64,000 nucleotides of DNA from a virus. Positions within the stretch are counted from its first letter, which is position 1, and each line of letters begins with the position of its first letter. A program made the position numbers and the translations under genes. The stretch lies in UHGV virus genome UHGV-0236300; one strand, given 5' to 3'. The notes beneath the pieces are model-generated. The model saw only the letters and a list, made by a program, of their open reading frames with translations. It was not told where the DNA came from and searched no databases. This document shows, in pieces, positions 41,376 to 45,331 of the stretch.

Positions 41376-43766
41376 ATGAGCATGTGGTCGTTCGATTTTG
41401 AGGCCTCTGGCTTGCTGGAAGACCCAGATCTTTATTATCACTGCGGTTTGTTTAAAGAGCTGAATAAGAACCGTTTTATGCTGTTCCTTCCCCTAAATGA
41501 CCGCACACACTACTCTGAAGAGGATGTGGAGAAAGCTAAGAACTTCATTCTGGCAAAGAAGACCCTTTATACAGATTTTGAGGCTCGCATAGCAGATTTT
41601 TCAGAGTTGGAAGGCTGGCTTACAGGCAATTCAGACTGGTCACCTACGGCTTTGAACTGTCATAACTGCTACAGTTACGACTTTATGCTGATGGAAAGAT
41701 TATCCGGTATTCATTTTGATATGTTCCGTGATCCTAAATGCATGGGAACTATCAACGACCACCAGGTTAATCTGTTTGATACGTTAGCGATGAGTCGAAT
41801 CTTGTGGCCTGACCGCCCTTTGCCAAAAGGTTGTCCAGACGCAGTATTCAATCCAGTTACCAAGAAAATGCAGCCTGTTGGACCTCATGGTCTTATGGCA
41901 TGGGGCTATGCCCTTGGTAACCAGAAAGTTCAAATCGATGACTGGCGGGAGCTTCCGCTGTGGAAGTATGTGGATCGTGTGTTCGAGGACGTTATCATTC
42001 AGGAGTTGCTCTGGAAGGAGTTGGTAGCGGAATCAAAAGGTGTATTCTACGGCAAATCTGACATGCAGAACTTTATGTACGATCCTGCCAAAGAGAAGCC
42101 GAAAGGCTTCAAGAAGATCACCTGGAAGAACGCATTACGCCGAGGCATGTTACAGCACTTCCTGATGGAGCTGCAGGCTCGACAGGGGGTGTATTTCGAC
42201 ATAGATGGGGCTATTGCTTTACGTGATCGTTGCGATGCGTGGATGAAAGAGATCGCTGATCGTGTTGAACCACAGCTTCCTTTAAAAGAGTTATCAATGT
42301 CTCAGCGGCCTAAGTTCCCTGAAAAGCCGTTTAACCAGGATGGGACAATCTCCAATAATGGTTGGAAATGGTTAAAAGACAAGCTTGGCTATCCTGTGGA
42401 CATGAGTGCTTTAGAATTTAAAGCCCCTCCTAAGCGAGCATTTACCTCCACAGGGGATGTAAGTAAGATGGGGATAAAATGGTGTGAAGAGATGGGCTGT
42501 AAAGACCCCGATAAGATGGCTGATTTCTTGAGGGGGTATATCAAAGGAACTTCTACACCACACCCTTTACCTAAAGAGCTGATGGATCAGGCGATAAGTG
42601 ACCTACAGCAGAAGCGAATGCCTGACTGCAAGATACCCATGAAAATCAGCAATCAGGACGACATCAAGCGATACCTGATCAGTGCTGGTTGGCTCCCAAC
42701 AATGTGGAGAACTAAGGATGTAACTAAGGATAGCAAGAAGAAAGCTTTACCTGATGCAGATGTTGATGCACGAGTATATGCATATATGGACGAGCTTTTG
42801 GAGTCAGAGTATTGTGACCTAATTATCAACTTCTGGAACAAAACTGATGCTAAGTTCCAGACAACTGTACATAAGTTCAGAAGCTTCCCTAACTCTGAAA
42901 GAATTAAAAAGGAAGTGTTCGGGAAAATACGTAGAAAAGCCAGAGCGCTTATTACTTCTCCGCAACTGAAAGATACGTTTGGGCACCTGTGCCCGAATCT
43001 TGAAAAATTGAACGGAGAGATGGCTAAAGATATCGTTTTGTGGTTATCATTGCGAAACCGTAGATCGGTCCTTGATCCAATCAAGGAAGATAAGGTTGAT
43101 ACTGGTCTTCTTAATCATCCACGTTTGAAGATTGACCACAAACTTCCTGCTAAAAGTTCTGGATTAACAAACACTTCCAGACAGAAACATAGTATTTGTG
43201 CAAACATGCCTAAACCATCTCCTAAAGTGGTTATGGGTAAAGAGATGCGTAGTCTGTGGGGTGTTCCTCCGGGATACTTTGAGATCGGTATTGACGGGTC
43301 CAACTTAGAGCAGCTCATCGGGGCCTGGGGTGCCTTTGAGTTTGACAACGGTCTGTATTATGATGTTGTAAGTAACGGGGACGCGCACCAAAACAATGCT
43401 GAGGCATATACAAAAGTAGCAGGTAGAGAGGTGTCCCGTAACGATGGTAAACCTATCACGTATGGGGTTATGTATGGGGCACAAAAAGATAAAGTTGCAG
43501 ATATGCTGGATATCTCTCCCGAACTGGGGCAGAGAGTAATCGATGCTCTCTGGGATGCCAACCCAGGTCTTAAGGGGCGCAAAGAGGATCTGGAGAAATT
43601 CTGGGAAGCAACAGGTAAGAAATTTATCTACTCTTTTGACGGGCATGCTATTTGGACACGCTCTAAACACTCTTTGCTTAATGCATATCAGCAAAATGGC
43701 GGTGCATCACTGTGTGACCTAGTTGGGATACTCATGCACCACCAGATGGTGAAGCGTGGATGGTAT
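41376..43766 (+). CDS. DNA polymerase, family A (exon 1, through motif C region)
   Basis: Motif A GIDGSNLEQL, motif B REVSRNDGKPITYGVMYG, pre-motif C YQQNGGASLCDL; contiguous ORF stops at 43805 shortly after WYDE, but splice donor proposed after 43766. Confidence 0.8.
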
Positions 43767-44641
43767 GATGAGGGTGTTCGTCGTATTATTTATTACCATA
43801 AATAACATTGTGGCTTCGTGCAGTGATGCACGTCGAAAACCTCTTTAATTGACGGGAAGGCTAAGTTGACTTTTACGCCTAAACATGGTAAAAGCTCAAT
43901 ATGCTAATCCGCAGCGAAGACTAAAGGGGTGTAGTTAAAATGGCTAGATCAGTTGATTATCACGGATATACCGTGTTTGATGATGGAACAATACCTTTAT
44001 CGAAACGTGATCATACAACAATGTTTTGTTTTGATAATGGTAGAGGTTACCTTTGCGTAACCATGCTCATCGAGGGGAAGCAGTGCACAAAAGGTGTCCA
44101 CCACTTGGTTGCTGAATGCTTTGTACCGAACCCTGATCCTGAAAAGCTCACATGGGTGAACCATAAGGATGGAAATAAGTACAACAATGCATACTGGAAC
44201 TTGGAATGGACTACCCCTGGCGGAAATATCAAACACGCCTACGATAATGAACTCAGAGTAAGGCCAGTCGGTGAGTATAATGCCAACGCTGTACTGACCG
44301 AGGATGAGGTAACGGAGATTTGTGAACTGTTGCAGAGTGGTCTACGACAATGCGAGATTAGGGATCTTGGGTATCCTTATGAGACGGTTAGGGCCATAAA
44401 GCAAAGAAGACAGTGGAAACATATCTCTAAAAACTACACCTGGTAGTAACGTTCAGAGACTATCGAAAGCATAGCTCCAACATAGTTTGGTGTGAAGAAG
44501 CGAGTAGAGTAGGCCAGCAAGTGCGGTCGAAATGAGAGGTGCCTTGGTGACAAGGCAGTGAGATAGTCCGATCCATACAGGAAACCGTATGGCTGTGCAC
44601 GTAATGGTGCGGGGTAGCTTAACGACCTACCTGAACTATTG
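43767..44641 (+). mobile_element. putative group I intron carrying HNH homing endonuclease ORF
   Basis: Core elements in canonical order: P-like AATTGACGGGAAGG (43847-43860), Q AATCCGCAGC (43906-43915), R GTTCAGAGACTATCG (44451-44465), S GAGATAGTCC (44560-44570); exon 1 ends in T, intron ends in G. Confidence 0.6.
43940..44446 (+). CDS. HNH homing endonuclease
   Basis: Motif VHHLVAECF...VNHKDGNKYNNAYWNLEWTT; RBS AAGGGG; located between intron Q and R elements. Confidence 0.85.
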   Translation: MARSVDYHGYTVFDDGTIPLSKRDHTTMFCFDNGRGYLCVTMLIEGKQCTKGVHHLVAECFVPNPDPEKLTWVNHKDGNKYNNAYWNLEWTTPGGNIKHAYDNELRVRPVGEYNANAVLTEDEVTEICELLQSGLRQCEIRDLGYPYETVRAIKQRRQWKHISKNYTW

Positions 44642-44995
44642 GATGAGTACCAACTTCAAGTGCCTGACACACCTAAGTATAAAACTGTATACACCTTCGA
44701 CACAATTGAAGAGCTGGAAACATTTAAAGCCCAACAAGAGGCTAAACTTCATGTGTTCGACGGTCATAAGTACAAAAAGGCACGCAAAGATGAGGACGGA
44801 AACGAAGTGGTTGACAAGGACGGAAATACGGTATACGATCCTATCTTGAACGATGACGGAAAGCTTGAACTTATCTGGAGCCCTGTGGGCGAAATGGTGG
44901 TGCATTGCTTCTGGCAGGCTTCTAAAATGATGGGCGTTCCGTTCCAGATCACAGGTGAATACTTGTGCGGTCGTAACTGGGGCGATTGTCACTAA
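44642..44995 (+). CDS. DNA polymerase, family A (exon 2, C-terminal segment)
   Basis: In-frame ORF ends GEYLCGRNWGDCH, resembling the conserved Pol A C-terminus; begins DEYQLQV, motif C-like when joined to exon 1; no RBS of its own. Confidence 0.6.
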   Translation, partial: DEYQLQVPDTPKYKTVYTFDTIEELETFKAQQEAKLHVFDGHKYKKARKDEDGNEVVDKDGNTVYDPILNDDGKLELIWSPVGEMVVHCFWQASKMMGVPFQITGEYLCGRNWGDCH

Positions 44996-45046
44996 TGTAA
45001 ACTATCAACACACGGAAGTGTTGTTAGACAAAGAGAGGAGACTTTT

Positions 45047-45331
45047 ATGGTAGTAGAACCAACAAAAACATTTACCTCCATGACTATCCCTGTCATTATG
45101 CAGGTAGAGTGCGTTCAGGTGTCCCAAGTGTGGCCCGGTACTAAAATTCCAACAGGGCCTGATTTCTTTCAGGTCGGCAAAGTGTATAATGTCTGGAAGG
45201 CACCGGATTGTTACCCTTTCATTAAAGATGACCGTGGAATGTTATGGTATCTGGGGAATGATTTGACACTGCATCTTGGAAATGCTATTATTGCAGTGTT
45301 CCGGCTCAACAAGAAGGAGACAGATCAATGA
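45047..45331 (+). CDS. small protein, paralog family B member 1
   Basis: RBS GAGAGGAG; shares FxxGKVY...DDxGxxWY core with next two genes. Confidence 0.55.
   Translation: MVVEPTKTFTSMTIPVIMQVECVQVSQVWPGTKIPTGPDFFQVGKVYNVWKAPDCYPFIKDDRGMLWYLGNDLTLHLGNAIIAVFRLNKKETDQ

Follow-up and report, generated by a model that had tools for sequence, protein, structure and literature searches.

A DNA polymerase gene that seems to end inside its own active-site motif, with a plausible remainder lying downstream in another frame, could be a gene that has come apart or one whose halves are rejoined as RNA. Such a gene lies in the 64,000-nucleotide stretch of viral DNA analysed here (the window). An earlier sequence-only reading proposed that a group I intron, with an HNH homing endonuclease gene in it, interrupts this family A (Pol A) polymerase gene, and the reading frames it listed, 41376-43805 for Pol A, 43940-44446 for the HNH protein and a downstream tail in a different frame, are all where it put them. 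The covariance model, covariation and homology to PHROG 59 described below bear out the proposal, and we hold it very probable that the interruption is a splicing-competent group I intron whose removal joins position 43799 to position 44642. The parts of the locus are as follows.

41376-43805, plus strand: Pol A open reading frame as found in the ORF list, 809 aa, C-terminus ...GWYDEGVRRIIYYHK followed by the stop
44639-44995, frame different from that of the Pol A ORF: tail ORF, 118 aa, C-terminus ...GEYLCGRNWGDCH
41376..43799, plus strand: Pol A exon 1, 808 codons, final residues ...RIIYYH, final base U43799
43800..44641, plus strand: group I intron, IA2-like, 842 nt, beginning AAAUAA and ending ...CUAUUG with terminal G44641
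43803..43805, plus strand: in-frame UAA stop, intron nucleotides 4-6
43940..44446, plus strand: putative HNH homing endonuclease ORF, 168 aa, in the P6a loop
44642..44995, plus strand: Pol A exon 2, 117 codons and a stop, DEYQLQV...GRNWGDCH

Over 41376-44995 the window shares 95% identity with Escherichia phage FV3, and dozens more Vequintavirus (rV5-like) genomes match the same region at 91-95% identity; judged by this similarity, the source is an rV5/FV3-like E. coli phage. The host gene encodes a T7-type family A DNA polymerase with motifs A, B and C and the catalytic Asp/Glu. A phmmer comparison of the spliced product with T7 DNA polymerase (E=1.4e-13) runs from motif A through HDE, across the exon junction, and pairs ...iyyHDEyql with AWVHDEIQV. 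The Pfam profile PF00476 (DNA_pol_A) scores 31.8 bits, slightly under its 34.3 cutoff, and joining the exons stretches its coverage from profile position 261 to 348.

The end of exon 1 was set by intron-less alleles together with exact protein look-up. In the intron-less vequintaviruses NHEP1, EI-SP-GF, JeffSchatz and rV5_ev156 the DNA reads ...TATTACCAT/GAYGAR... (here and below a slash marks the junction), and when 43799 is joined to 44642 the window yields the RNA ...UAUUACCAU/GAUGAGUACC, the junction-spanning peptide ...IIYYHDEYQLQVPDTPK and, in frame, a product of 925 aa that reads ...KRGWYDEGVRRIIYYH/DEYQLQVP.... A 179-aa peptide spanning this junction is 100% identical to a contiguous 537-nt stretch in NHEP1 and about 98% identical in several further intron-less phages, and 300 nt of in-silico spliced junction find a contiguous 98% match in EI-SP-GF. 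The intron-less pol CDS of JeffSchatz is 2778 nt, or 925 codons plus a stop; the window's own 925-aa product occurs exactly in ENA/Logan assemblies (3 contigs, the longest of 136,810 bp, in an unannotated entry), and the protein that this junction gives for phage EmilHeitz is identical to GenBank QXV77979.1. The splice sites thus lie after U43799 (...UACCAU/AAAUAA) at the 5' end and after G44641 at the 3' end, and the intron sits between the His and Asp codons of what the T7 alignment identifies as a canonical HDE motif C.

The sequence-only reading chose the same 3' site but put the 5' site after U43766, 33 bases too far upstream, which would make the same intron 43767-44641, the product about 914 aa and motif C YDE. 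There are reasons to have looked there, as GATGAG is indeed present at 43767-43772 and 44642-44647, at both of the proposed junctions, and U43766 with G44641 satisfies the U...G rule and keeps the frame. Yet GGUAU/GAUGAG offers neither P1 nor guide pairing, whereas CCAU/AA pairs with UUGUGG in 13/13 homologues, and P1 with its U.G pair places the site after U43799, in agreement with the intron-less alleles, every one of which retains the 33 nt encoding DEGVRRIIYYH. Public sequences speak the same way: exact look-up in a collection of 15 billion sequences found 925-aa versions of the protein and no 914-aa version. When the spliced protein was set against intact Pol A, as that reading had suggested, the junction fell across His/Asp-Glu, with the HDE of T7 DNA polymerase aligned to YYH/DE and WYDE aligned with 'W-DGD', 11 residues before it. 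We give the upstream site practically no chance of being correct; the upstream GATGAG is exon 1 sequence coding for the DE of WYDEG, and its recurrence at the 3' junction is unrelated to splicing. A different 3' site, after G44617 and in frame with U43799, was considered and rejected: G44617 sits in the co-varying P9.2 stem, and no intron-less allele matches the product ...YYH/LNDLPELLDEY.

As to the nature of the intervening sequence, a search of the entire 64-kb window at Rfam gathering thresholds gave no match, while RF00028, the group I intron model, is the only Rfam match at E<0.01 in the window. The covariance search foreseen in the sequence-only reading therefore did return the expected family, at 31.1 bits in the window, with E=8.6e-6 on the 1.2-kb region. 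The score lies under the RF00028 gathering score of 50 because a 529-nt insert in P6a breaks the alignment, which fails past the Q element, where the ORF follows. A natural ORF-less allele in phage SYGMH1, in which the 14-nt hairpin CAUCC-GAGA-GGAUG stands in for 528 nt, scores 75.6 bits (E=2.8e-19) over the full model, and it is by way of this allele that the element is assigned to RF00028; the two introns are 97.8% identical over their shared parts only, which make up 37% of the window intron.

The pattern of substitution among relatives provides an independent test. The comparison covered 13 homologous introns with their ORFs removed, the homologues being drawn from 12 further phages: Vequintavirus (three intron forms), Avunavirus Av-05 and TH18, Certrevirus CR9, PBES02 and phiTE, Seunavirus PVP-SE1 and SSE121, LTH01, the Aeromonas phages phiA009 and 4L372D, and Pseudomonas phage SPA01. 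Across the nine helices scored (P1, P2, P3, P6, P7, P7.2, P9, P9.1 and P9.2), 99.1% of 587 cells are paired, compared with 33-42% once the 3' strands are shifted one to three columns out of register; 22/47 pairs show compensatory change on both sides, and 0/500 shuffles matched the observed values. P4, P5 and P8 had been misaligned by MAFFT and were scored by a separate script; P4, P8 and the closing stem of P6a, all scored apart from the nine helices, likewise co-vary. The core helices P3-P8, including the P3/P7 pseudoknot, are kept by compensatory change. The RNA elements are these.

43796..43813, plus strand: P1 hairpin, exon CCAU (43796-99) and intron AA (43800-01) with UUGUGG (43808-13)
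43806-13, plus strand: internal guide CAUUGUGG, part of the P1 hairpin
43817..43832, plus strand: P2 hairpin, CGUGCA-GUGA-UGCACG
43840..43845, plus strand: P3 5' strand CCUCUU, partner GAGAGG at 44534-44539
within 43850..43913, plus strand: P4, UG[A]CGGG (43850-56) with UCCGCA (43908-13), enclosing P5 and its extension
43859-61 with 43903-05, plus strand: P5, recovered together with its extension by the MFE fold
43866-43899, plus strand: P5 extension hairpin, from the MFE fold
43914..43916, plus strand: P6 5' strand GCG, partner CGU at 44450-44452
43920..43936, plus strand: P6a 5' arm, part of a long-range stem closing the ORF loop
44458..44462, plus strand: P7 5' strand GACUA, in the R element, partner UAGUC at 44564-44568 in the S element
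44463-65 with 44501-03, plus strand: P7.1, UCG with CGA and an inner hairpin, assigned by inspection only
between P7.1 and P7.2, plus strand: linker GUAGAGUAG, which includes GUA
44512-28, plus strand: P7.2, GGCC[A]GC-AAGU-GCGGUC, 3/4 scored pairs compensatory
44540..44557, plus strand: P8 hairpin, UGCCUUG-GUGA-CAAGGCA
44573-92, 44596-611 and 44613-31, plus strand: P9, P9.1 and P9.2 hairpins, 97-100% of cells paired
44642..44645, plus strand: P10, exon 2 GAUG with guide CAUU (43806-43809)

At the 5' end of this structure the six pairs of P1 are kept in 13/13 homologues, with the U43799.G43810 wobble at the 5' splice site invariant. P10 forms 4/4 pairs in 13/14 homologues and 2/4 in SPA01, and the guide CAUUGUGG pairs without a break to the 8 nt of the ligated exons, CCAU/GAUG. 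All six pairs of P2 change on both sides among homologues while 100% of its cells pair; P3 likewise pairs in 100% of cells, with compensatory change in 3/6 pairs, and the same full pairing is found in P7, which forms the pseudoknot with P3 and in which one pair changes from U-A to C-G in 3 sequences. The fourth pair of P4 goes from G-C to U-A in 8/14 sequences. P6 as scored (43913-16 with 44450-53) has 2/4 compensatory pairs; A43913 more probably belongs to P4 as its final base, which leaves P6 three pairs, and since the A43913-U44453 pair is invariant the covariation result does not change. A hairpin occupies the P8 position in 14/14 sequences with stems unrelated in sequence, and P9, P9.1 and P9.2 together contribute 7 compensatory pairs. 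The P, Q, R and S strings picked out by the sequence-only reading, with the ORF between Q and R, were correctly identified: P AATTGACGGGAAGG (43847-43860), Q AATCCGCAGC (43906-43915) and R GTTCAGAGACTATCG (44451-44465) hold as given, and for S GAGATAGTCC only the end coordinate, 44570, needs correcting, its actual span being 44560-44569. The P and Q strings both fall inside the P4-P5 segment 43850..43913, and the listed sequence elements are far beyond chance. Subgroup IA2 is characterised by P7.1 and P7.2 between P7 and P3', with a G-U-A linker (PMC3428280); P7.1 and P7.2 with their GUA-containing linker therefore place the window intron in that subgroup.

The long-range stem P6a carries the ORF out of the core. 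ACUA (43920-23) and GGUGUAGUU (43928-36) pair with AACUACACC (44432-40) and UAGU (44444-47) at a duplex energy of -17.3 kcal/mol; an equivalent closing stem of different sequence is found in 10/10 ORF-bearing homologues, and in ORF-less alleles a hairpin of 14-15 nt takes the position of the closing stem. The P6a 5' arm lies between a Shine-Dalgarno-like AAGGGG and the AUG of the HNH gene, and it may limit translation of the endonuclease. A promoter and terminator scan of 43700-45100 returned sites no more often than in shuffled sequence.

The two-step scheme of splicing proposed here follows the established group I pathway. The pre-mRNA would fold into P1-P9.2, and an exogenous guanosine would attack after U43799, held in the P1 U.G wobble pair. 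The freed exon 1 would stay on the guide CAUUGUGG, which would align exon 2 through P10, and attack by exon 1 after the terminal G44641 would join CCAU to GAUG, giving the 925-aa polymerase with its intact HDE. Guanosine-dependent self-splicing is predicted here, the evidence being the RT-PCR reported for the orthologous intron of phage CB7 (PMC7344957). Translation of unspliced RNA would end at the UAA three bases into the intron, and the resulting 809-aa product would be without the Asp-Glu of motif C, so splicing would be obligatory.

It is worth considering whether the gene might instead be interrupted and never spliced, the 809-aa and ~117-aa polypeptides being translated separately and assembled after translation. 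The idea has a precedent in the NrdA of Aeromonas phage Aeh1, split by mobE into separate polypeptides (PMC7344957), and it would sit comfortably with the many GenBank records that list the two pol pieces as separate CDSs. Moreover, one HNH-associated interruption in phage CB7 has been reported not to splice, and splicing can therefore not be assumed for every such element (PMC7344957). On the other hand, a full catalytic core kept by compensatory changes across several phage groups would be unexpected in dead spacer DNA, and the CB7 intron that is orthologous to the one described here has been reported to splice (PMC7344957). Exon 2 is also poorly equipped for life on its own, with no in-frame ATG, no Shine-Dalgarno sequence upstream and, as its only in-frame start, a TTG within the 3' tail of the intron, and the split would part the His from the Asp-Glu of a single active-site turn. 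Separate translation thus seems to us very unlikely, and we favour a spliced intron.

The intron's passenger is homologous to known HNH proteins. The 168-aa protein matches PHROG 59 (HNH endonuclease) at E=1.9e-38, and its nearest solved structure is that of I-HmuI (1U3E, E=3.9e-5), in an alignment that covers the block ...VHhLVA...vnHKDGNKyNNaywNLeW; the protein accordingly carries an I-HmuI-like HNH catalytic block. The enzyme would nick or cut intron-less pol alleles of co-infecting phages, by analogy with I-HmuI, I-TslI and I-PfoP3I, and repair of the cut allele would copy the intron in. A decaying intron is an alternative to such homing, one in which the ribozyme splices but the HNH gene is inactive and the element, no longer mobile, passes by vertical inheritance only. 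The Pfam HNH_3 match is indeed weak, 20.9 bits against a cutoff of 24.8, and there are ORF-less derivatives (328, 276 and 317 nt), as befits the usual cycle of gain and loss of homing endonuclease genes. But the ORF in the window is intact at 168 aa, protein identity runs at 96-99% among many isolates and at 72% against the Av-05 copy, frameshifts are absent, and the conserved His/Asn block aligns with that of I-HmuI; intron-less alleles with an unchanged target sequence, such as the JeffSchatz type, moreover co-exist with the intron. Loss of mobility is in our estimation improbable, if less so than separate translation of the polymerase, and the element is better regarded as a presumptive mobile group I intron that would spread by homing.

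The distribution of the element among phages is patchy. It is missing from roughly half of the 115 records of close relatives, and 33 records hold at least 80% of the 842-nt element; ORF-less forms of 276-328 nt (276, 317, 324 and 328 nt) are found in other records. Presence and absence are thus polymorphic among phages that are more than 90% identical, an indirect sign of mobility and homing. Homologous introns are found at the same H/DE site in polymerases only 27-60% identical to that of the window, and their cargo varies: the P7.1 region of PVP-SE1 houses a LAGLIDADG gene, and P6a of phiTE, CB7 and 4L372D a shorter HNH gene. These features might be drawn together in a single account, quite possible in our view though we advance the whole of it only tentatively, in which one intron lineage locked to the His/Asp-Glu of motif C has moved among the Pol A genes of several groups while swapping endonuclease cargo, with its own sigma-70-like promoter, the element TTGACT-17-TAAAAG at 43866-43894, in the P5 extension and with the P6a stem, beside the ribosome-binding site, able to limit translation. 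The groups in this account are four Vequintavirinae genera, Aeromonas Plateaulakevirus, Pseudomonas Pakpunavirus and possibly the T7-like PhiI and W31; the cargo is two HNH types in P6a and LAGLIDADG in P7.1. NHEP1-type intron-less alleles have five synonymous changes in the target site, which can be read as possible 'escape'. Both the lineage account and these target-site changes are seemingly unpublished.

The element is an ordinary one of a known class, already annotated in near-identical phages, and its biological weight is small: it is a textbook mobile group I intron, as we read it, in a phage replication gene. Its value lies rather in annotation, as many rV5/FV3-like records give an 809-aa 'DNA polymerase' and a 118-aa 'hypothetical protein' in place of the one true product, a 925-aa enzyme whose HDE is intact. 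The case also illustrates how the default threshold of RF00028 misses ORF-bearing introns, and the locus, with its intron-plus, ORF-less and intron-less alleles, offers clean material for studies of homing in coliphages.

Among known relatives the closest is that of Escherichia phage EmilHeitz (Bas49, MZ501062), a record from the BASEL collection in which the pol CDS is a two-piece join (QXV77979.1) with the same junction as in the window and a 'putative homing endonuclease' inside. HeinrichReichert, WalterGehring, AlexBoehm, FV3, APECc02 and others also carry the intron; these sister vequintavirus introns are 94-98% identical, in the same position and with no difference of substance, and in the records of FV3, APECc02, CM1 and others the exons are separate CDSs or 'hypothetical protein'. 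The rV5 genome paper mentions terminase introns only, and our literature search found no paper on this intron specifically in Vequintavirus.

Further afield, the intron of Pectobacterium phage CB7 (with ORF CB7_50) is flanked by the pol pieces CB7_51 and CB7_49 and shares 95% identity with the copy in phiTE; its splicing was reported from RT-PCR and Sanger sequencing (PMC7344957). These Certrevirus introns occupy the H/DE site as in the window and agree with its intron in P1 and in the guide, and their 3' half is homologous. They differ in their HNH ORF, which is of another kind and shorter (about 127 aa), and in a larger P5 region, and there is a second pol intron upstream that the window does not have. 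Group I introns with nicking HNH enzymes are also known in the Pol A genes of the Bacillus phages SPO1 and SP82 (I-HmuI, I-HmuII) and of cyanophage Pf-WMP3 (I-PfoP3I). The Pf-WMP3 intron has been described as IA2, and all three are inserted at Pol I position 674, in the fingers subdomain (PMC3428280), rather than at 881 as here, with HNH similarity to the window protein only in the catalytic block (residues 34-100).

The insertion point itself recurs in distant phages. Position 881 of E. coli Pol I is the motif C His (His881-Asp882-Glu883), which corresponds to H/DE here. The pol introns of the T7-like coliphages PhiI and W31 are IA2 introns at Pol I position 881, with an HNH gene in P6a (I-TslI in W31) (PMC3428280). 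Although PhiI and W31 are podoviruses and the window phage is an rV5-like myovirus, their introns, compared by description only, resemble that of the window in host gene family, subgroup, ORF family, P6a location and insertion point.

The intron that interrupts the Pol A gene in the window, a group I intron at 43800-44641, has the same insertion site in related phages, and what differs from one phage to another is the endonuclease gene it carries and the loop in which that gene is housed. In phiTE, CB7 and 4L372D the HNH gene within the P6a loop is shorter and looks unrelated to its counterpart in the window. In some relatives (Av-05, record L008; SSE121, L011; TH18, L010; phiTE, L016; and CB7, L020) the polymerase is interrupted again ~350 nt upstream by a second HNH-containing element, which leaves the gene in three pieces; at this upstream site the window polymerase is uninterrupted.

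Features of the intron and of the polymerase gene in the window and in related phages (L-numbers are sequence records; a slash within a sequence marks the site)
PVP-SE1 (L007), 1773-2366: LAGLIDADG gene in the P7.1 region; P6a is an intact hairpin
phiTE (L016), 902-1285: shorter HNH gene in P6a
4L372D, intron position equivalent to the promoter-like element of the window: TTGACA-17-TATAAT
CR9, same position, promoter-like element: TTGATA-17-TAATAT
SSE121, same position, promoter-like element: TTGATA-17-TAAAAT
PVP-SE1, same position: promoter annotated there
Window, 43388/43389: empty site for a 323-aa insertion, at Pol A codons 671/672 (...SNGDAH/QNNAEAY...)

Within the P5 extension of the window intron lies a sigma-70-like element, TTGACT-17 nt-TAAAAG (43866-43894), which fell below the pass mark of a simple promoter scan of 43700-45100. 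At the equivalent position, the ORF-bearing homologues have sequences much nearer the consensus than the window copy, and this suggests that the endonuclease gene has a promoter of its own, carried by the intron.

A 276-nt variant of the intron that contains no ORF is present in vB_EcoM_12A_SA_NWU (L005, 787-1062), as well as in PDX, navn, RudolfGeigy and O157 typing phage 5. Its P2-P8 core is divergent, with shorter P5 and P7.1, an altered P7 and ~84% identity over the portions that still match, yet over its final ~80 nt, which comprise P9.1, P9.2 and the 3' tail, it matches the FV3-type intron exactly. The combination of such a core with an identical 3' end suggests recombination inside the intron.

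The polymerases of VB-EcoM-WM (L003) and NHEP1 (L004), and probably that of Mangalyan, contain an in-frame insertion of 323 aa. Its sequence runs CYSGDT...VAVCGN, followed by Cys, with LAGLIDADG-like blocks, and by appearance it is an intein. As NHEP1 has this insertion and lacks the group I intron, the two elements assort independently.

Sixteen GenBank records (MG065635-MG065690) titled 'Campylobacter phage', with C. jejuni as the listed host, are 85-93% identical to the window polymerase region (41376-44995), which belongs to a vequintavirus of E. coli, and the intron polymorphism of the vequintaviruses recurs among them; the host label looks doubtful. An entry named 'hypothetical protein HVZ79_22845 (plasmid) [Escherichia coli]' belongs to the protein cluster of the 809-aa exon-1 product (window 41376-43802), as do fragments of the product from several assemblies of E. 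coli, so bacterial genome submissions do contain Vequintavirus DNA.

The intron-less alleles fall into two classes. JeffSchatz and rV5_ev156 match the window exons without a difference for 20 nt or more to either side of the insertion site. NHEP1 (2781-2800) and EI-SP-GF (L017), set against window 43790-43799 and 44642-44653, differ by a single synonymous change 10 nt upstream of the site and by four others in the first four downstream codons (GAC GAA TAT CAG). This is what endonuclease-resistant targets or co-conversion tracts would be expected to look like.
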